A DNA stretch of 64,000 nucleotides, taken from positions 124,001 to 188,000 of the IMG/VR virus record IMGVR_UViG_3300011906_000002; one strand, given 5' to 3'. This DNA is from an uncultured virus (IMG/VR IMGVR_UViG_3300011906_000002). Lineage: Duplodnaviria; Heunggongvirae; Uroviricota; Caudoviricetes. A program made the translations under genes and the position numbers. A model generated the notes under the pieces. It did no database searches and was not told where the DNA came from. It saw only the letters and a list, made by a program, of their open reading frames with translations. Below, piece by piece: positions 6,324-14,560 of the stretch (the first letter of the stretch is position 1; every line of letters begins with the position of its first letter).

Positions 6324-7139
6324 TTACCACCGTCCGCCAGTCAGCAGACCAAGGTGACGTTTGTGTTGTTCCGGATCGCTCAATATTGCAATTTTTCGCC
6401 AGCGTTCATCGAACATGGTTTGGTATTGCTCGTGCGCATCGGAGTACCCGTCTACCACTTCACGGAAACGACCAATGGCCATACCACCCATCAACTGAGC
6501 CTGGTCCATGGAGATGTTGATGTTGTTGTAGATATAGCCCTTACACGCCAACACACACATCTTGCCGAAGACCAACACTGCAGCAGGCAAGAACCCGTTC
6601 AGTTCAGCGTCTGATTCAATCACACAGCGCAGGTAAGGATTACCTGGCATGGCGATGTTCTCTTTCACCAGTACAGTGTTCTCACCCATCAACTCGATGT
6701 TGGCTGTGGACACAATGGGGATCGAGCTATGTGAAGCTAAAACCCCTTGGGCCTTACTCAAGATCTCTGAGCGCCCTTGCAAGCCCATATTCAACGAGCC
6801 TGCTATACCGCCGTCACCGAAGGTAATGTGCAGGACGCGGATAATGCTGCGCTGTTGGGTAAGGTGTTTCGGGACTCGATATACGAGGTTATACGAGTTA
6901 ACGTACTCGGGACGTACTGTGGCAAGCGGTACAGTAACTTCAGTACCGCCGACAAGATGACAATCCGGCAAAACAATACCATCGATCACGGCCTCACGAA
7001 TACGCTGATCCAGCGATAAGGGTTGGAAGTTGTGGCGTCCACCGAAGGCAGACATGGTTTCAGTCAAGAACGTTTGTTCCAGGATCTGTTTGGGGATACT
7101 GGTCCGAATGTCCTTGAGGGCTTTTTGAATGGCGTTCAT
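6324..7139 (-). CDS. Conserved phiKZ-like core protein (probably gp42-like)
   Basis: 271-aa ORF with AAGG RBS; assignment by recalled similarity and synteny. Confidence 0.55.
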   Translation of the reverse strand: MNAIQKALKDIRTSIPKQILEQTFLTETMSAFGGRHNFQPLSLDQRIREAVIDGIVLPDCHLVGGTEVTVPLATVRPEYVNSYNLVYRVPKHLTQQRSIIRVLHITFGDGGIAGSLNMGLQGRSEILSKAQGVLASHSSIPIVSTANIELMGENTVLVKENIAMPGNPYLRCVIESDAELNGFLPAAVLVFGKMCVLACKGYIYNNINISMDQAQLMGGMAIGRFREVVDGYSDAHEQYQTMFDERWRKIAILSDPEQHKRHLGLLTGGRW

Positions 7140-7215
7140 AGTTAAGGTCCTACGTTAGTTTCCCCTTCTATAAAATTGCGTAACTCTTAAAGGGTAATGT
7201 AAATAAAATCAGATG

Positions 7216-7230
7216 TATACTATCTACTGG
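7216..7230 (+). promoter_or_regulatory. Early promoter variant
   Basis: AAATAAAATCAGATG-TATACTATCTACTGG, nearly identical to the 29633 site. Confidence 0.55.
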
Positions 7231-7268
7231 CAATACAACAAGGAACCTAATTTCTGTGGAGTTGCATC

Positions 7269-7481
7269 ATGCTTAAATGGATTAACCCTTGCTATTGGGG
7301 AGAGCGTGCAGCACAAGCAACCATTCGTTGGGAAAACCGCCGCCGCGCAGAACAGCTGTTTAACCAAGCCGACCTACTGATTCAGGAAGCCGCACACTAC
7401 CACCCAGGTCCGCTTAAAGACGCCTGCATTAGCCATGCACAAGAGTTGGCTAACAAGGCCTTTGCTTTGTGCGATAAATAA
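7269..7481 (+). CDS. Hypothetical protein
   Basis: 70-aa ORF, GGAG RBS. Confidence 0.7.
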   Translation: MLKWINPCYWGERAAQATIRWENRRRAEQLFNQADLLIQEAAHYHPGPLKDACISHAQELANKAFALCDK

Positions 7482-7508
7482 GTCCCCGTAATTCTAAGGA
7501 GAATATCA

Positions 7509-8117
7509 ATGCCTCTAATGCGTGCAAATCCTGAAGTCGATGAGTTGCGTGAACAAGTCATCGGTGATTTCTTTCAAGTGTGGGAACTCAATGATCCTGC
7601 ACATCGTGTTAAGCATTTTGAAGAAGTAGAACATTGTGCTAACCACATCAATGATTCGCTGCGGTTGGGTTATGACCCTAAGCTGATCATGCTCGTGGCG
7701 TATTTCCATGATATGTTTGCATGGTCCCGCGATAACCATCACTTGATGTCAGGTGAGTGGATCATGACCACAAGCTACCCTGTCATCGCGGCCCTTGATC
7801 CTGAGGAGCGTTTAATGGTAGCGGCTGGGTGTCGTGAACACCGGGCTTCAAATACTCAACCGTTCACCTGTGGTTTTGCTCAACTGATGTCGTCTGCCGA
7901 CCGAGGCTTTCCTGACCTCTCGCTGAGACACATGACCCAACGAGCAATCGAATACCGTCTCCATAAAGGACTAGGCACGACCGAAGCTCGTAAGGGTGCC
8001 ATTAGACACCTCAAGGAGAAATTCGGCACCAACGGATATGCTAACTATCCGGCCTACTACCAAGCGGTGTTTAAAGCAGAGTTACAAAAGCAACGAGAGC
8101 TGGTTGACGTACTCTGA
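7509..8117 (+). CDS. HD-domain phosphohydrolase
   Basis: AHRVKH...AYFHD...H...EHRAS...SADRG HD motifs. Confidence 0.85.
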   Translation: MPLMRANPEVDELREQVIGDFFQVWELNDPAHRVKHFEEVEHCANHINDSLRLGYDPKLIMLVAYFHDMFAWSRDNHHLMSGEWIMTTSYPVIAALDPEERLMVAAGCREHRASNTQPFTCGFAQLMSSADRGFPDLSLRHMTQRAIEYRLHKGLGTTEARKGAIRHLKEKFGTNGYANYPAYYQAVFKAELQKQRELVDVL

Positions 8118-8244
8118 GTAAAAAAAGACACGTGCTCGGTATTTCTGTGAAGAAGTGTCAGCACAAACCAATGTAGGGGTTTGCTCAACCAAACCCAAGC
8201 CAACCCCTATGTGCTAAACTTAACCTGAACAAAAGGTGAATCAA

Positions 8245-9207
8245 ATGGAAGTTGGAAAAGTAAGGTTGTATGGCTGTGGCGGTCTCGGGGTCAACTTCGC
8301 GGCTCGTTATCTGAATAGCAAAAGCGGAGATGGCTTCGCTGCGATCGATCCTGCGTTCATCGATACCAGCCGTTCCAATCTCACCCCGGAAATCCCCGAG
8401 GAGAAGGTTTACATCCTCGAGAATACCGACGGCTCCGGTAAAGTGCGTCGTGAGAACCACGCACAGATCTCCAGCTCCATCAAGCACATCCTGCAATCGC
8501 AGCAGCCTGGTGAGTTCAACATCGTCGTGTTCTCGGCCTCCGGTGGCTCGGGTTCGGTGCTGGGTCCGCTCATCGTTTCGGAACTGTTGGTTCGTGGTCT
8601 GCCGGTTGTGGTTCTGGTTGCCGGTTCTTCGGAATCGAACATCACAGCCAACAACACCGTCAACACCCTGAAGTCACTGGCTGCGATCAGTAAGAAGGAA
8701 TCGGCTCCGGTCGTAACCTACTACTTGCACAACGGTGGCGACAACACCCGTTCGGCAGTGGACAAGAAGCTGGCGTTCGCTACCTCCTGCCTGTCGTACC
8801 TGGCGTCTCGCCAGAATGCTGAGCTGGATACCAAGGACGTTAGCCACTGGCTGCGTTACAACCACTCGACCGAAGTGGCTCCACAGCTCTCGCTGCTGGA
8901 CATCTTCATCGACCAGAAGTCGGCCAAGAGCATCACCGATCCGATCTCGGTGGCCAGCCTCTACGCTGATCGTGACCAACCGCACCTGACTGATCCGGTT
9001 CCGGACTACTCGTGCGCCGGTTACTTCCAGCACAAGGTACAGGACATCGAAGAAATCCACTTCGTGATCTCCACCCAACACCTCGGCGCGACTTACGAGA
9101 AGCTCGAGGAAACCCGCAACGACTACAACGCTCGTCGTGACAGCCGCGTACAGACCCGCAAGATCGTGGATCTGGACGAAGCACAAGACGATGGTTTGGT
9201 TCTGTAA
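8245..9207 (+). CDS. phuZ: Phage tubulin PhuZ
   Basis: GCGGLG, DGSGK, SASGGSGSVLG tubulin signature, acidic DDGLVL C-terminal tail. Confidence 0.95.
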   Translation: MEVGKVRLYGCGGLGVNFAARYLNSKSGDGFAAIDPAFIDTSRSNLTPEIPEEKVYILENTDGSGKVRRENHAQISSSIKHILQSQQPGEFNIVVFSASGGSGSVLGPLIVSELLVRGLPVVVLVAGSSESNITANNTVNTLKSLAAISKKESAPVVTYYLHNGGDNTRSAVDKKLAFATSCLSYLASRQNAELDTKDVSHWLRYNHSTEVAPQLSLLDIFIDQKSAKSITDPISVASLYADRDQPHLTDPVPDYSCAGYFQHKVQDIEEIHFVISTQHLGATYEKLEETRNDYNARRDSRVQTRKIVDLDEAQDDGLVL

Positions 9208-9217
9208 GAGGTAATAT

Positions 9218-9418
9218 ATGAGCCACTTCTTTGCATGTGACACCTGCGATACGGTAGACCTCGATGAGTTGTCACCGTTGCCGCAACCTTGCCCGTCAGG
9301 CAAGTGGCTCTGTACCTGCTGCATGAGCCAGCCCTGGCACAATCAGTTCCCCAAAGAGAAGTACAACCCCGAGAAGCATCTGGTGGTTAATCGTCCTTCT
9401 GGAATTGGCCTGGGTTAA
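9218..9418 (+). CDS. Small Cys-rich (zinc-binding) protein
   Basis: CDTC...LCTCC...WHNQFP; GAGG RBS. Confidence 0.75.
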   Translation: MSHFFACDTCDTVDLDELSPLPQPCPSGKWLCTCCMSQPWHNQFPKEKYNPEKHLVVNRPSGIGLG

Positions 9419-9449
9419 TCCACTGTCGTTGAAATAGGACTTCGCCATC

Positions 9450-9665
9450 GTGACGCAAGAGCAAAAAGAGTATGTGGTGCTGCGGGTGATCTTCGTAGGT
9501 TTTGCTACGTTGATCGGTTTTGCCATCGGGATGTTGTTCTCGTGGCCTGCGGCAGTGGGACTGGCAATCTTCCAGTTCGTGTTGTGTATGGGGTTGACGC
9601 GAAAACGCATTGCGTTCAGTGAACGCTATCCATATGAGGAAGTAACCACATGCTCCGCCCAATAA
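9450..9665 (+). CDS. Small membrane protein
   Basis: Two hydrophobic segments in 71 aa. Confidence 0.7.
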   Translation: MTQEQKEYVVLRVIFVGFATLIGFAIGMLFSWPAAVGLAIFQFVLCMGLTRKRIAFSERYPYEEVTTCSAQ

Positions 9666-9811
9666 GGCTGAGTGAGTTGAAGCTACCACCACCAGACCCT
9701 AATGCTCGACAAAAGAGCCTGGATGCGGTTAAAGAGTTTCGACAAGCCCAAGCTGAATTGGAAAAACGGTGCGAAGAGTTGGGCATCCCGGTTCCCGAGA
9801 TGGTCTGCTAA
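9650..9811 (+). CDS. 53-aa hypothetical protein (below the ORF-track cutoff)
   Basis: GAGGA RBS, then MLRPIRLSELKLPPPDPNARQKSLDAVKEFRQAQAELEKRCEELGIPVPEMVC*. Confidence 0.65.
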   Translation: MLRPIRLSELKLPPPDPNARQKSLDAVKEFRQAQAELEKRCEELGIPVPEMVC

Positions 9812-10262
9812 AGGTTTTGGTGGGGTTGGAGCCTAGAGCGATACCTTTTCCTGGTCGCTCTACCAGCCCACCATTTTAAATAAGGGGCTTTGTATAAGGG
9901 TCTTGATTATCGGTGGTATGGGTGCATTGGTGTTGGCGCACTTATTGAATCATGGAATCCCGGCGGGGGTTGAAGTTCAGGGTGTGGATGCCGGCTACTA
10001 TACTACCGCCGACGGCTGGTCGCAGCAGGCTTACGCTTTGCGGACATTCGAACACGAGGAGGCCACACGAGAAGGAATTGATTTCCTCCGTGCACGCGCA
10101 GCTTACGGGTTCGGACTGTCTGGGAGTTGGCCTAGGCGACACTACATTGCAGGGGCGTCGAGCCACACCCATAGGGCGGGTGTAAGGTTCAGACGTCTCC
10201 TATTTCTCATTAACCGTTCATGTGAGTCTTAAAGGAATCTTTTTCTTTCTGCTTCTCTACAT

Positions 10263-10697
10263 GCTGGCCCTTTGCTATGAATGGCAACTGTGGCTGGCGC
10301 TGGCGGTCAACGGAGCGTCTATCTTAGAACTTAGACTGAGGGTAAGTCCGCACCCTGAGAGTTTGCGGCATAAAACCTTCCCCGTGTTCGCAGGGCCCAG
10401 GACCCTGTCTTAAGATAGAAGCGCCTATTGACGCGCTATATATATGAACCGATTAAGTTCGGCATTAAGGGTTTGCCAACCCAGCAGTCGTTAATAGTAA
10501 CACACCTAGGACGAACGGCCTCTATCAGCTGTCCACCCCCCTAGGGTTTGCTTGATAGCTTCAAAAGCAGTAAAGAACACCCCCCTCGGCCGCAGCCCAG
10601 GCATCGTACAATGGTCACTTCCCATGGCGGGAGTTGGTGACGCGGAGTCGATTAGACCTGACTCGAGTCGAGACGGGGGCGTTTCCTACTTATGCCG
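10263..10697 (+). ncRNA. Putative large structured non-coding RNA (about 435 nt)
   Basis: Many nested helices, e.g. TCTATCTTA 10318-26/TAAGATAGA 10411-19 and CCCCC-CTCGGC 10580-90/GTCGAG-GGGGG 10667-79; G-U pairs favour the + strand; no credible ORF. Confidence 0.55.
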
Positions 10698-10698
10698 T

Positions 10699-11310
10699 CT
10701 AATTGATTTTGCCTCGTCTTACAAATTTCAGCAGCTTAGAGCGTACCAGGTCGTAAGGCCGAATGGTGCTACCTATTCTGCCTTTAAGGAGTTCTATGCC
10801 GCCAAAGCGCAGGACCTCAACGATGAACTCAGAACAGATAGAGATCTGACCATCGGTTGAGGAGAAGATGTTCTTACGAAAGATGGCGTTAAAGAGTCCC
10901 AAGTGGTTGTAACGAGTCTGGTCAGGGTTTGCAGCCAGAAACTCCACGCGCTCCTTGATTTGATCGAACGCTGCGTCTGTTACTTTTAACTCGTAAAGCG
11001 AATAAAATGAACCGAACAGATTTGCGCGGTCTTCCACCATGAAACCACCCTTAACGGAACTGATGCCGTTGTTAAGCGCGTAGGTATAGATGGGGTCGTC
11101 GAAACTGTCGGTGAGCATCAAGGATACGTGGTTATACGGATCGCCTGTGATCAGTCGGCTGACTTTGCTAAACTGGGTCTTGGTGTCTGTTAGCAATACG
11201 TAGATTGATTTGGCGTCGCGGTTCTTAGCCGCATTGACCAACTCTATGCCCTCTTCACTGTAGACCAGGCCCAGACCTGGCTCAATGAGGGCAGATAACT
11301 TCGCCGCCAT
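10699..11310 (-). CDS. Permuted papain-like (NlpC/P60, YiiX/YebB-type) amidase
   Basis: PYNHVSL (His) precedes SICSEFIVEVL (Cys); RYNHLGL and IRPYDL motifs. Confidence 0.75.
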   Translation of the reverse strand: MAAKLSALIEPGLGLVYSEEGIELVNAAKNRDAKSIYVLLTDTKTQFSKVSRLITGDPYNHVSLMLTDSFDDPIYTYALNNGISSVKGGFMVEDRANLFGSFYSLYELKVTDAAFDQIKERVEFLAANPDQTRYNHLGLFNAIFRKNIFSSTDGQISICSEFIVEVLRFGGIELLKGRIGSTIRPYDLVRSKLLKFVRRGKIN

Positions 11311-11367
11311 GGAGTGACGCTCCTGTAGTGGGTGAGTAGAAGTGATAAACTTAAAGAAGTAGCCAAC

Positions 11368-11745
11368 ATGAAATCTTACAAGGTTGTAGTACCTTTAGTG
11401 ATCTACCTCATCATAGCAGTAGGGATGCTGGGGATATATAAATGGGTAGGCGATCGCACTACCTACATGATCGCGATGGCATGGACTTTCTATGCAGGCT
11501 TTAGGGCGTTATATCTAACGGTGTTGGGGGGAAAAGCCGCTGAGCAGATGTTGGTTGGAAATTATAATCAACAAAGCTTAGTGTTCATGACCATTGTGGT
11601 GGGTGTCATCCCTTTCCTGTTCCTAGGATGGATGGGTCCTCTGGCGTTCGGGTGCGTAAGCTTTGCATTCGAATACCAATCCTACCTGATTATCCGGAAA
11701 TATACGTGGAGTAAAAACCATGGTAGACATTACCATCAACGCTGA
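11368..11745 (+). CDS. Membrane protein (about 4 TM helices)
   Basis: Four hydrophobic stretches. Confidence 0.7.
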   Translation: MKSYKVVVPLVIYLIIAVGMLGIYKWVGDRTTYMIAMAWTFYAGFRALYLTVLGGKAAEQMLVGNYNQQSLVFMTIVVGVIPFLFLGWMGPLAFGCVSFAFEYQSYLIIRKYTWSKNHGRHYHQR

Positions 11746-12142
11746 CCACTCGTTTGTTAAGTTGAACAACGGCAACACCATCGAGCACGATGAAGAAGGG
11801 ACTGTGTTCATTCGCAACATCTCCCCACAAACTGACGACCCTGCCCGTACCCATACCCACTACGCTAACATCCAGTGCCTGGCTAACGAAGGGGCGCAGA
11901 TGATCGAGCTGATTCGACAGGGTATTGAGACCGGTCATTGGGAAGGGCGTTCACGCCATGCGTTGGTACGTTCCGGTACACCGGGGTGCTACCGTTACTT
12001 CCCTGTCCCTCTGCTCTTTGAGAAGGATGAGACTATTCGCAAGTCCAGCCAAGAAGCCGGACAGCACACCCACCCAGACGGTTGGTACAAGTATCGCCGT
12101 AACTTGGTGTCGCAACTCGTTGGCCTACCTCAGATACCTTGA
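11720..12142 (+). CDS. Hypothetical protein
   Basis: 140-aa ORF, GGAG RBS, followed by a terminator. Confidence 0.8.
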   Translation: MVDITINADHSFVKLNNGNTIEHDEEGTVFIRNISPQTDDPARTHTHYANIQCLANEGAQMIELIRQGIETGHWEGRSRHALVRSGTPGCYRYFPVPLLFEKDETIRKSSQEAGQHTHPDGWYKYRRNLVSQLVGLPQIP

Positions 12143-12158
12143 GGTGGGGCTTTACTTT

Positions 12159-12184
12159 AGGAGGCTTCGGCCTCCTTTTTTTTT
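12159..12184 (+). terminator. Intrinsic terminator
   Basis: AGGAGGC-TTCG-GCCTCCT plus T tract. Confidence 0.9.
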
Positions 12185-12207
12185 CGCTGGGGTTTACACT
12201 ATAATAT

Positions 12208-12651
12208 GCGATTTAGTGTCACTGGTAAAAAATCCGTTGCTTTCACGGTCAATGGATTAACACCGATGTCGGTCTGTTGAGCATTGTCTATGGCAGTGCA
12301 CTGGTTGTCCAGATAGCTGAGTTATGGGTCTCGGTGAAAGAGTAGTCAGATTCGTATTGAGGTGACCCGGATTCTGCCACCGTTCATTTGTTTGTTTGCG
12401 CACGGTGGAGCGAGCAGAATTATTACATTCCGTAGGTCGGGGTAGCGGTTTAACAGTGGACAGGAGCGGTCGGATTGTGCTCTGGCGTGGCAACGACTCG
12501 GGAACGGCACCACGCCGTACAGAGAGTGCCGCTGGTGGGCATCGGAGTTGCTAAAGGGGAAACCTCGGTGCGTCACCAGGATGGTTGCCCTGTCCCTTTC
12601 CACCCTGGGGGTGGGGTGTAGAAGGAGGACTTCGGTCCTCCTTCTATGCCG
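12208..12651 (+). ncRNA. Putative large structured non-coding RNA (about 440 nt)
   Basis: Follows a terminator; TATG at 12205-08; at least 9 helices with + strand G-U pairs; ends in a 12-bp UUCG hairpin plus TATGCCG; no credible ORF. Confidence 0.65.
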
Positions 12652-12773
12652 CCATTCAACCATAGTTCTAAAAACGCATAGGAAGCTCGTGACAAGGTTT
12701 TCGTCTGTTAAACAATACCTACCCGCGTATTTTATAGAGAGCTTGTCTGGCGCATCCTAAGATGTTTCAGACC

Positions 12774-12790
12774 TATATCATCTTAGTGAA
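12774..12790 (+). promoter_or_regulatory. Early promoter variant
   Basis: TTTCAGACC-TATATCATCTTAGTGAA. Confidence 0.6.
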
Positions 12791-12822
12791 GTGGTAGACC
12801 CCTTTAAAGAAAGGATTAAACT

Positions 12823-13344
12823 GTGAAATATGTCATACCCACCCGTGATTGGGTTGAGTTCCTTAAAATGCGTTTGACTGACATCATCAGTGAAGGTCAG
12901 ATCCCGAAAGAAGAACTGCGTTTTAGTGACTCTGTTTGTATCCACGTGGTGCGGCATCTTCTGATCATGCGCCTGCGCGACATGATGTTTTGGTTCCATG
13001 ATGAACTGGAACTGAAGCTGGCTGACCCCACGGATTTGCTGATGACCATGGTAGTGGAAGAAGAAGAAGGTTTGATCGCCAGGATCTTCCCAGCCTTTGT
13101 CAATGTAGTGGGTGAAACACGCAATGTTAACTCAGTACTTGAGACCTGGGGCGACCTTTTGGAAGACGAGGTAATCGATCCACTGGACCGGTGCATCTTG
13201 GACTACCTGACTACCACGCTGTCAATCGAACCGACCTGGGACCATTGTACAGTTAAACAATTGGGCAACAGCTACATTATCACTCGCGGGGAAGACTACC
13301 GTGCATTATTCTGGGACAAGTACCGAAACACCGTCAAGCCCTAG
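12823..13344 (+). CDS. Hypothetical protein
   Basis: 173-aa ORF, AAGGA RBS, first gene of a tightly coupled operon. Confidence 0.8.
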   Translation: MKYVIPTRDWVEFLKMRLTDIISEGQIPKEELRFSDSVCIHVVRHLLIMRLRDMMFWFHDELELKLADPTDLLMTMVVEEEEGLIARIFPAFVNVVGETRNVNSVLETWGDLLEDEVIDPLDRCILDYLTTTLSIEPTWDHCTVKQLGNSYIITRGEDYRALFWDKYRNTVKP

Positions 13345-13801
13345 ACGGGTGGTGGTGGAAACCTCACGGGTGTTGGGGTTCATGGAAACAGCGCTAAACG
13401 ATCACTTCGGTGCAGCAGCTCAGTATCTGAACCTACAGTCGATCCTCTACCAACTGGTGGAGAACCGTATTAGTGGGAATGTGATGGCCTCGTGTGAGGT
13501 GATCAAGAAACTAATTGGTGAATACGGGTTGGATGAAACCTTGTTGGACGAGGTCTTTGACGCAGTGCGCGATCAGATGAACCAAGTCTTTAACCTGTCC
13601 TTCCCTTATGACATCAGCGAGTACGTGTGTAACTTCCGTTTGATTAGCCGAGGTGATACCTTGGTTGAAATCTTGCGTGAGCATGACGAACCGAGTGCAG
13701 TGCATTTGGAAGATCGTGTCCACGAATACTTAGAAGAAGCAGACGAGAACTTCGACTACGTCCCCGAACGTGTACGCCGAGCCTTGGAAGCAATGCGATG
13801 A
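13301..13801 (+). CDS. Hypothetical protein (start uncertain)
   Basis: 166-aa acidic ORF overlapping both neighbours. Confidence 0.75.
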   Translation: MHYSGTSTETPSSPRRVVVETSRVLGFMETALNDHFGAAAQYLNLQSILYQLVENRISGNVMASCEVIKKLIGEYGLDETLLDEVFDAVRDQMNQVFNLSFPYDISEYVCNFRLISRGDTLVEILREHDEPSAVHLEDRVHEYLEEADENFDYVPERVRRALEAMR

Positions 13802-14169
13802 GCCCTGTGGTGGTACTGGCCCTCCCGACCAGTGAACTGCCACAGGCTTCCCCTAAACTACTGACGTACCTTTGTGAGTCGTCAGAAAGCTTGCGTTGGT
13901 TGGCTGTAGAGATACTCGGTAATCGAGGCGATGGTCATCATCAAGAAGACCTGTTTTACGAACGGGTGTTAGGCGATGAAGGGGTGCAGTATACAGAGAC
14001 TGTCACCATGTTGCATCAAGACTACCTCGATTACCTGAACTCAGTTGAACAGGTGTTGTTCCAGTACCTAGGAAAGCACCTTAGTAATTGCTGGTTTAGG
14101 AGTGTCGCACAATCACACGCAGTCCTTGTTGTGGAATGTCATTATGATCCTATTGATCCCCCTGAATGA
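13798..14169 (+). CDS. Hypothetical protein
   Basis: ATGA overlap coupling. Confidence 0.75.
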   Translation: MSPVVVLALPTSELPQASPKLLTYLCESSESLRWLAVEILGNRGDGHHQEDLFYERVLGDEGVQYTETVTMLHQDYLDYLNSVEQVLFQYLGKHLSNCWFRSVAQSHAVLVVECHYDPIDPPE

Positions 14170-14560
14170 CTTGTTTGAAAATTACCGCCACATCGAGCCG
14201 CATCTACACGAGAACAAAACCTCACTCAAGGAGTTTGCCGAAGCCTCGGTGGCCATCCTAGATAAGGTTGAGTTGGCCGATAGCCGTAACTACAGCAGCA
14301 ACCCCGAGTACTACCTAGACTACACTAACCCCCTTGCCGAGTTTGAACAAAAAATACAAGGGGCCAATCCAACGAATTGTTATGAAGATATGAATGCAGC
14401 TCTGGTTCATCATCAACTTACAGCGTTGGCTTTAGAAGTGTATTATGAGCTAGTAAACTCCTTAGCGGTTTACAAAATCGTCGATCATCCAGCATTGTTT
14501 CGCGCTGTGGTGGGTTGGCGCGGTCAGAATATGCTACTCAAAGTCTACCGCAGATTCTAG
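14144..14560 (+). CDS. Hypothetical protein
   Basis: ATG 14144 in frame with track ORF 14102. Confidence 0.75.
   Translation: MILLIPLNDLFENYRHIEPHLHENKTSLKEFAEASVAILDKVELADSRNYSSNPEYYLDYTNPLAEFEQKIQGANPTNCYEDMNAALVHHQLTALALEVYYELVNSLAVYKIVDHPALFRAVVGWRGQNMLLKVYRRF

Follow-up and report, generated by a model that had tools for sequence, protein, structure and literature searches.

Phages carry large, ornate structured RNAs such as GOLLD and ROOL. In phiKZ, the terminators described in the relevant part of Putzeys et al. 2024 (PMC10914365) consist of a conserved stem-loop followed by TTAT, with the consensus BCCYCCCCHWWDGGGRRGGBYTTATKYYGT, and the part of PMC11512511 that concerns termination reports a similar motif in 201phi2-1. 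According to the sections of PMC10914365 that treat transcript ends, most 3' untranslated regions (UTRs) of phiKZ are shorter than 100 nt, and bidirectional terminators lie between convergent genes. For phiKZ, PMC4666361 describes TATG as the late promoter, and transcription starts at its G. The non-coding RNA (ncRNA) candidates of phiKZ and 201phi2-1, as far as the pertinent parts of PMC10914365 and PMC11512511 describe them, are shorter than 250 nt and mostly derived from 5' UTRs via premature termination. Here, we analyze an element found in 64,000 nt of an uncultured virus (the window), which are bases 124001-188000 of the 223,076-bp IMG/VR virus record IMGVR_UViG_3300011906_000002; the record has direct terminal repeats. 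A preliminary description, made from the letters of this stretch, had proposed a large ncRNA free of open reading frames (ORFs) at 10263-10697, downstream of the operon that carries the phage tubulin gene phuZ. The region is a genuine conserved, structured, non-coding element outside the known RNA families, with covariation in its flanks and an identified terminator motif. As an independent large ncRNA it is only a candidate, and it may serve the phuZ operon as a 3' UTR.

The element is composed of two modules, namely module A (10233-10437), which is fast-evolving, branched, and compensated, and module B (10438-10698), which contains a near-invariant 170-nt core and a branched stem. Our preferred reading, which we hold at a probability of roughly 0.45, is that a plus-strand RNA forms the structured 3' end of the phuZ unit and that a discrete RNA comprising its final ~250 nt is probably set free at the CTATATATATG tract. 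Transcription of the plus strand beyond the stop codon at 10232 would run through module A (to 10437), and the transcript would end at a phiKZ-type terminator made up of an ~100-nt branched stem and TTATGCCGT (10569-10698). Module B from about G10446, the last ~250 nt, bounded upstream by CTATATATATG, would be the functional heart of this RNA. The tract itself would either start a separate transcript, through its late-promoter-like TATG, or be a cut site within the UTR, and either route would yield a stable, discrete RNA of ~250 nt with a 5' hairpin and a terminator at its 3' end, which we infer to be plus-stranded through the core and to act in trans.

Relatives of the locus were found by using the 203-aa protein of the convergent gene as an anchor. 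Group 1, in which the whole region aligns, is made up of the four viral contigs L013-L016 together with two metagenomic near-copies (L025 and L026); the anchor protein is 88-89% and PhuZ 94-96% identical. The pairing analysis used seven sequences, representing five distinct lineages plus the two near-copies, and the conservation fractions were taken from a 5-way alignment. Group 2 comprises 13 distinct loci (L017-L023 and L027-L032), whose anchor proteins are 58-63% identical. Five further loci have anchor proteins that are 47-52% identical, and the two that were inspected (L024 and L035) show an ORF-free gap of 440-500 nt behind the gene, with no recognisable counterpart of the window element in it. 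A scan of viral contigs for the core motif returned only the four known relatives, and a PhuZ-anchored scan gave the same four contigs. A gapped motif scan gave 26 stretches, made up of 10 known relatives and 16 that were unrelated by inspection, and a scan of bacterial genomes gave none. When 10200-10720 (blastn) and 7000-14500 (megablast) were searched against 50,697 phage records, nothing matched.

The features of the element are as follows.
10151-10200, plus strand: upstream hairpin ACGUC..CCACACCC / GGGUGU..GACGU (helix 2), in which two-sided changes affect 4 of the 18 pairs (in L015, CCAGGC/GCCUG)
10263-10298, plus strand: hairpin CUGGCC/GGCUGG (helix 6), with 4 of 7 pairs varying on one side, all still paired
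10301-10438, plus strand: module A, branched, closed by GUCAA/UUGAC and UCUAUCUU/AAGAUAGA (helices 8-13)
10366-10389, minus strand: terminator-like motif GGGAAGGTTTTATGCCGC with the invariant core gcggcataaaacc, invariant in 7 of 7 sequences
10436-10446, plus strand: CTATATATATG tract, with a putative function either as a late-promoter-like start (G10446) or as an AU-rich processing site
10446-10578, strand ambiguous: predicted core hairpins at 10449-62, 10469-82, 10483-92, 10496-10552 (inner hairpin 10515-32), and 10558-68
10569-10690, plus strand: 3' branched stem AGUA..GAAC..CCCCCCUCGGC / GUCGAG..GGGGG..GUUU..UACU (helices 20 and 21)
10690-10698, plus strand: terminator motif TTATGCCGT, which fits TTATKYYGT and abuts the stop codon (10699-10701) of the convergent gene

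The division into two modules is seen in the conservation of the region. The invariant fraction is 0.80 in phuZ and 0.58 in module A (10298-10431), rises to 0.89 in the core (10432-10605), drops to 0.34 in the tip of the 3' stem (10606-10655), and reaches 0.93 in the remainder of that stem (10656-10698). The boundary is sharp at 10432, where it coincides with the CTATATATATG tract / GCGCTATATATATG, and the 174 nt from 10430 are the best conserved within positions 7500-11400 of the window. Hence, the ~435 nt first proposed as one unit split into a fast-evolving 5' domain and a near-invariant 3' unit. Within the core, the loops and the C-rich single strands are invariant as well, so sequence-specific contacts with a protein or nucleic acid are the most likely function, rather than that of a mere stabiliser, and three 1-nt indels exclude a coding function. 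The core occurs in a single copy in the genome and is absent from four group-2 records; its covariance model finds only itself (170 bits) and gives E >5 in those four records. The tip of the stem (10606-10655) exists in two unrelated versions, both hairpin-forming, one shared by the window and L016 and the other by L013-L015. A comparison with other long ORF-free stretches of the genome for paralogy revealed only the terminator motif in common.

The preliminary description had asked for compensatory changes in homologs, and these were found. The consensus fold of the seven sequences contains 180 pairs in 21 helices, of which 96.4% are paired, compared with 94.5% in shuffles. Changes on both sides are seen in fourteen pairs, compared with 5.1 ± 1.7 in column shuffles (none of 500 reached 14) and 2-4 in controls in which the partners were slid. 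Counting compensatory or one-sided changes as support, the supported helices are 10263-69/10292-98, 10301-10/10428-38, 10346-52/10364-71, the tip hairpin at 10610-42, and the hairpin at 10151-10200. In module A, compensatory changes fall in helices 8, 10, 11, and 12, and the tip of the 10263-10298 hairpin is lengthened by a 15-nt insertion in five of the seven sequences (L013, L014, L015, L025, and L026), forming helix 7. These two-sided changes are located in the flanks and the tip hairpin; none occurs in the core, whose helices (10440-10578) thus find neither support nor contradiction. Folding of the single sequence beats chance only weakly: the 466-nt gap folds on the plus strand at -160.7 kcal/mol (z = -2.05, with 5 of 100 shuffles as good) and on the opposite strand with z = -1.99, and the values for module A and for 10446-10697 are z = -2.09 and z = -2.04, respectively.

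The claim that the region is free of ORFs holds in substance. Mechanical ORFs of 63 aa (10222-10413) and 102 aa (10552-10860) overlap it, and we rejected the corresponding small proteins, as they show no periodicity, contain frame-breaking indels, and have no PHROG match. Among the variable sites of the 5-way alignment, codon periodicity is absent from 10125 to 10700, whereas the neighbouring 203-aa gene is strongly periodic (in one example, 21 of 27 variable sites share a codon position); moreover, the frames are broken by 1-nt indels in relatives, and no conserved reading frame was found. The lack of periodicity and the indels together show that the non-coding stretch is real and reaches upstream of 10263 to ~10125. 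The structure likewise extends upstream, to ~10151.

All pairing arms listed in the preliminary description were found in the sequence at their coordinates, along with the TATG sites at 10276 and 10443 and the 3' motif TTATGCCG at 10690-97. The arms are the following.
10263-69/10292-98, plus strand: hairpin arms GCTGGCC/GGCTGGC
10306-10/10428-32, plus strand: closing arms GTCAA/TTGAC
10318-26/10411-19, plus strand: arms TCTATCTTA/TAAGATAGA
10391-95/10404-08, plus strand: arms CAGGG/CCCTG
10469-73/10478-82, plus strand: arms GGGTT/AACCC
10505-10 and 10540-45, plus strand: two copies of CCTAGG
10522-27/10553-58, plus strand: CTATCA/TGATAG
10580-90/10667-79, plus strand: arms CCCCCCTCGGC / GTCGAG..GGGGG
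Two of the proposed pairings are not supported in the comparison with relatives. The central pair of the CTATCA/TGATAG pseudoknot is broken by an uncompensated T to G change in two of the seven sequences (L014 and L016), and an AGGGT/ACCCT arm is outdone by a competing CCGCA/UGCGG hairpin, in which an A-U pair is replaced by G-C.

The suggested Rfam search was run, and no family matches the element. At the gathering threshold, none of the 4227 models of Rfam 15 matched anywhere in the 64-kb window; at E values up to 10, the stretch 9800-12900 gave a single match (asX6, 19 bits vs 50), which lies outside the element. ARAGORN found no tRNA or tmRNA genes in 9000-13500. Literature searches on ncRNAs of jumbo phages, phiKZ, and Chimalliviridae brought up no account of an element like this one in chimalliviruses, although absence in print is not thereby proven.

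The 3' motif is not confined to this element. TTATGCCG occurs 7 times in the window, compared with 1.04 expected, and TATGCCG, which is among the most enriched intergenic 7-mers, has 48 sites in the genome, nearly always directly after a G+C-rich hairpin. On a crude gene map, on which these classes rest, 19 of the sites follow a co-oriented gene only, 10 both follow one gene and precede another, none only precedes a gene, 8 fall inside ORFs, and 11 fit no class. For 27 of the 29 sites that follow a co-oriented gene, the stop codon is within 111 nt (mostly at 16-53 nt), and for the other two it is at 180 and 196 nt. As a genome-wide motif that fits the phiKZ consensus, this signal is the terminator of the clade and not a special mark of an RNA class. 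The preliminary description had noted a 3' signal in common with a second element near 12208; the same motif is indeed present in both, but it is not RNA-specific. At the element, TTATGCCGT is conserved in all seven sequences (TTATGTCG in L025 and L026) and in 13 of 13 group-2 loci. It follows the ~100-nt branched stem, and the last plus-strand ORF has its stop codon about 458-460 nt upstream. Since the plus-strand terminator stands ~460 nt beyond that ORF, transcription of the plus strand across the region is implied.

Several further observations concern the same motif. Other sites in the window are 942(-), 5529(+), 14579(+), 18702(-), 34083(-), 47228(+), 53382(-), 58352(-), and 58381(+). 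The sites often form palindromic pairs (GGCATAAA-hairpin-TTTATGCC) between convergent genes. The phage in which this match to the phiKZ terminator consensus is seen has a PhuZ with <46% identity to those of cultured phages. Outside the window, G000:C1:10584-11058, located between two minus-strand genes, comprises 475 nt without a long ORF, at the plus-strand end of which the motifs TTTTATGCCGTC and TCTATGCCGTC follow one another; a third non-coding RNA is possible there.

The upstream boundary of module B is formed by the CTATATATATG tract, whose TATG is present in six of seven sequences. Where 3' UTRs undergo RNase E-type processing, AU-rich single strands that separate stable domains are likely places for the cut, and the tract may be such a site, releasing a UTR-derived RNA. 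By analogy with the element near 12208, module B may instead be a separate RNA gene. The strand of the two modules is not equally clear. Module A folds better on the plus strand (-99.1 vs -83.1 kcal/mol, alignment columns 114-340), whereas the core alone folds about equally on the two strands (-52.4 vs -55.8), which leaves its strand ambiguous in these models. It is plausible that both strands are transcribed over 10366-10698.

A number of observations weigh against a discrete plus-strand RNA. The core together with the 3' stem folds at -130.1 kcal/mol on the plus strand and at -139.4 on the minus strand, and the variable pairs of the core are kept in 5 of 5 cases in the minus-strand model but in 4 of 6 in the plus-strand model. 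The conserved minus-strand motif at 10372 suggests that the transcript of the 203-aa gene also crosses module B. The plus-strand terminator has an atypical spacer of 10 nt from stem to TTAT, compared with 2 in the published consensus. L016, one of the five lineages, has TAATG in place of TATG, and the tracts of this type were only three, singled out by eye among 10 genome matches to the pattern. Group 2 lacks a conserved internal TATG, so the region there looks like a plain 3' UTR. The z-score of the single sequence is just about -2. In addition, no target or partner was found; exact antisense matches of 11-15 nt in the phage genome occur at chance frequency. The comparison rests on just five distinct, closely related sequences, and with PhuZ at 94-96% identity, the invariance seen in the core is a less remarkable finding than at first sight. 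The contigs filed as RNA that cover parts of the region have a depth of 3-5, are unstranded, show no ends, and are possibly DNA, and were therefore not used as evidence; they come from four runs filed as RNA-Seq, three of them metatranscriptomic and one (X10) a metagenomic library that is probably DNA. Low-depth contigs of relatives that cover phuZ to ~10581 (X20) and to 10188 (X18) were likewise not used, and the parts that these contigs leave uncovered, the 203-aa gene included, prove nothing.

Some of these points would be accommodated by a plain long structured 3' UTR with a terminator and insulator zone between convergent units, acting in cis without a discrete RNA. The structure would then protect the mRNA of the phuZ operon from 3' exonucleases and halt polymerases arriving from either side, 10569-10690 would be a bidirectional terminator, and the motif at 10372 would be its back-stop. 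The terminator motifs at 10690 (plus strand) and 10372 (minus strand) are both conserved in all seven sequences, the 3' stem can fold on either strand, with a U-rich run behind it on the minus strand, and its freely replaceable tip fits a terminator hairpin. Group 2, without an internal TATG and with an element that begins right at the ORF stop, agrees with such a zone, as do bidirectional terminators between convergent genes, which are common in this genome and reported in the phiKZ account of transcript ends (PMC10914365). We nevertheless consider this explanation somewhat unlikely, as it does not account for why the 130 nt upstream of the stem (10446-10578), with their loops, are the best conserved of the surroundings beside a fast-evolving UTR domain. 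It is also opposed by the 27 of 29 motif sites within 111 nt of a stop and by the 3' UTR lengths, mostly <100 nt, given for phiKZ in the same account (PMC10914365).

The fold energies raise the question of whether the RNA is made from the other strand, either as a 3' UTR of the 203-aa gene that runs from 10699 to the motif at 10372-10366 or as one partner of two strands that pair as antisense control. This motif (GGGAAGG-TT-TTAT-GCCGC) is invariant, has the canonical 2-nt spacing, and fits the 3' half of the phiKZ consensus, and in group 1 no proximal canonical terminator stands behind the 203-aa gene. The minus-strand fold of the core and 3' stem is not only the lower in energy but contains 88 G-U cells compared with 50, and keeps all five variable core pairs. 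However, conservation falls at 10377-10431, within the supposed UTR and just ahead of its terminator, the hairpin before the 10372 motif is weak (5 pairs) and unconserved, module A favours the plus strand, and in group 2 the 203-aa gene has its own proximal terminator while the element is clearly plus-stranded. A minus-strand RNA is therefore unlikely. The invariant loops, the strand-symmetric folds, the lack of compensatory changes inside the core, and three copies of the short repeat CACCCCCCT(A/C)GG would also fit a DNA-level site beside phuZ (protein-binding, replication, or partition-type), with incidental RNA folds. We regard such a site as very improbable, since the repeat array typical of these sites is missing, one-sided changes in the core mostly preserve pairs, and covarying RNA helices and terminators enclose it. 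The preliminary description had also raised ribozyme activity. Apart from size and branched fold, nothing points to a self-cleaving or self-splicing ribozyme (intron) or to a known large RNA class: no Rfam family reaches threshold in the window or appears in the region at E up to 10, and no downstream plus-strand frame could serve as a second exon, as the next gene (10699-11310) is on the minus strand. Hence, this is the least credible of the explanations considered. The plus-strand RNA with a probable discrete 3' product remains our preferred reading.

The second element, near 12208 (window 12143-12660, from G12208), comprises ~445 nt free of ORFs and is conserved in the same four relatives. 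It is preceded by a hairpin and T9 terminator (12159-12185) and then by CTATA(A/G)TATG, conserved in five of five sequences, it shows compensatory changes (e.g. GGCGUGG/CCACGCC vs GAUGCAA/UUGUGUC), and it ends in a hairpin and TCTATGCCG, the same terminator motif. Owing to its own upstream terminator, the conserved CTATA(A/G)TATG, the covariation, and the terminator end, it looks like an independent RNA gene. Module B resembles it in being ORF-free and present in the same relatives and in having a CTATA..TATG-type tract ahead and the same terminator motif. However, the 12208 element is longer, and the classical terminator that precedes it makes its independence clearer. The preliminary description had seen no obvious shared primary sequence between the two, and only the terminator motif is common to both. 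The group-2 loci L017, L019, and L022 carry arrays of tRNA genes beyond the 203-aa gene (locus ~250-2150), at the place taken in the window by the 12208 element; no tRNA match to Rfam was obtained in the 64-kb window.

Group 2 carries a structured region at the same syntenic position, where ~600 nt extend from the stop of the homologous ORF to TTTTATGCCGT (e.g. L022:3638-4245, minus strand of the locus). Its consensus contains 105 pairs, with 97.6% of the cells paired, and 25 pairs changed on both sides, compared with 17.0 ± 1.9 in shuffles (none of 500 reached 25) and 5-10 in slid controls. It folds better on the plus strand (-266.8 vs -219.5 kcal/mol; 5' domain, -86.7 vs -56.7) and contains many invariant G-U pairs, UUCG-capped hairpins, and a three-way junction. 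It has no Rfam match, and overall it is better supported than the element of the window. The two regions share homologous flanking genes, the TTTTATGCCGT end, and the words AGUAA(A)GAA(A)CA, GCCGCAG, and CUCGAG in the same order. However, covariance models of the group-2 3' domain (R1) and 5' domain (R2) gave only 4.4 bits (E = 3.9) and 8.3 bits (E = 0.11, a 43-nt piece), respectively, on the window, and local alignments between the groups were no better than shuffles in five of six cases (z -1.2 to 1.1; one z = 2.8). The two elements are therefore treated as positional counterparts and not as one RNA family, for which their similarity is insufficient. Rfam searches of the loci of four relatives placed none of 24 matches in the element. 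A 20-nt exact identity between 10450-10469, in the 5' hairpin of the core, and L074:1501-1520 of a group-2 record (E = 3.5e-4) was rejected as homology; it sits in a 199-aa gene whose homologue in the window genome (G000 122170-122722) lacks the word, and it is probably due to chance.

With these counterparts in view, one might tentatively propose that the clade keeps a slot at the end of the phuZ operon for large structured RNAs whose sequence turns over while selection maintains their structure, although we find this broader proposal doubtful. In group 1, the slot would hold a branched domain and the invariant RNA of ~250 nt; group 2 would have a non-homologous RNA of ~600 nt there, and more distant relatives have ORF-free gaps of 440-500 nt. 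The occupant in the window would be an RNA gene with its own TATG-type start, whose invariant loops act in trans by binding a factor of the phage or the host, serving for instance as a decoy or ribonucleoprotein scaffold during infection, and at least two RNA genes would flank the convergent 203-aa gene.

The element sits between convergent genes, the plus-strand operon on the phuZ side and the minus-strand 203-aa gene. phuZ occupies 8236-9207 (PHROG 4733, E = 2.4e-101), and its presence indicates a nucleus-forming jumbo phage of ~223 kb; the nearest cultured PhuZ is only 45.1% identical, and among the matches listed, 200 of 200 matching phage records are below 60%. The flanking genes are as follows.
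9903-10232, plus strand: last ORF of the phuZ-side operon, 109 aa, starting LIIGG...
10699-11310, minus strand: convergent 203-aa gene with strong codon periodicity, the anchor for finding relatives
The 109-aa ORF shows codon periodicity in 9900-10120 that is gone beyond 10125, so its tail past ~10120 is under no coding constraint. Its stop shifts to give 105 to 147 aa among five relatives, while the LIIGG... body is conserved, and a homologue is found in group 2; it has no PHROG or Pfam match. The end of this ORF overlaps a hairpin that is preserved by compensatory changes at the expense of the peptide sequence. The 203-aa protein has a weak PHROG 1128 match (enoyl-CoA hydratase-like, E = 7.6e-11) and no Pfam family; it is well conserved throughout the clade, with the His and Cys motifs NHVSLM and ICSEF invariant. 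Elsewhere, CCTATAT(T/C)A(C) preceded by an AT-rich tract is found repeatedly ahead of genes (window 12772, 34498, and 47252 and other genome sites), a pattern that we take to resemble the early promoter element of phiKZ, and TATATTA/ATATTAC are the most enriched intergenic 7-mers of the genome.

Little has been charted of the ncRNAs in jumbo phages that form a nucleus, and the candidates published from phiKZ and 201phi2-1 are short and mostly leader-derived. What this element adds is a much longer structured zone with an ~250-nt core that is conserved at least as well as the adjoining phage tubulin gene. Should the core prove to be a discrete trans-acting RNA, it would open a way to study RNA-level control, or host interference, in phages that keep their transcription apart from the cytoplasm. 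If the region is a UTR and terminator zone only, it documents an unusually elaborate architecture of convergent termination built on the phiKZ-type motif.

Comparing the element with the known systems, it becomes apparent that it differs from GOLLD and ROOL in having no match to their Rfam models, a smaller size, a narrow distribution (five phage lineages), and no supported pseudoknot. With the phiKZ-type terminators, it shares TTATGCCGT, which fits TTATKYYGT; across the genome, the motif follows G+C-rich hairpins at its 48 sites, stands behind co-oriented genes, and occurs in bidirectional pairs between convergent genes. However, the ~100-nt branched stem, the replaceable tip, and the 10-nt spacer set it apart from these terminators, which do not account for the conserved core. 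Similar to the ncRNA candidates of phiKZ and 201phi2-1, it is phage-encoded, lies between a candidate start and a phiKZ-type terminator motif, and is conserved among related giant phages, whereas, unlike those candidates, it is located at the 3' end of an operon within a structured zone of 460-570 nt.

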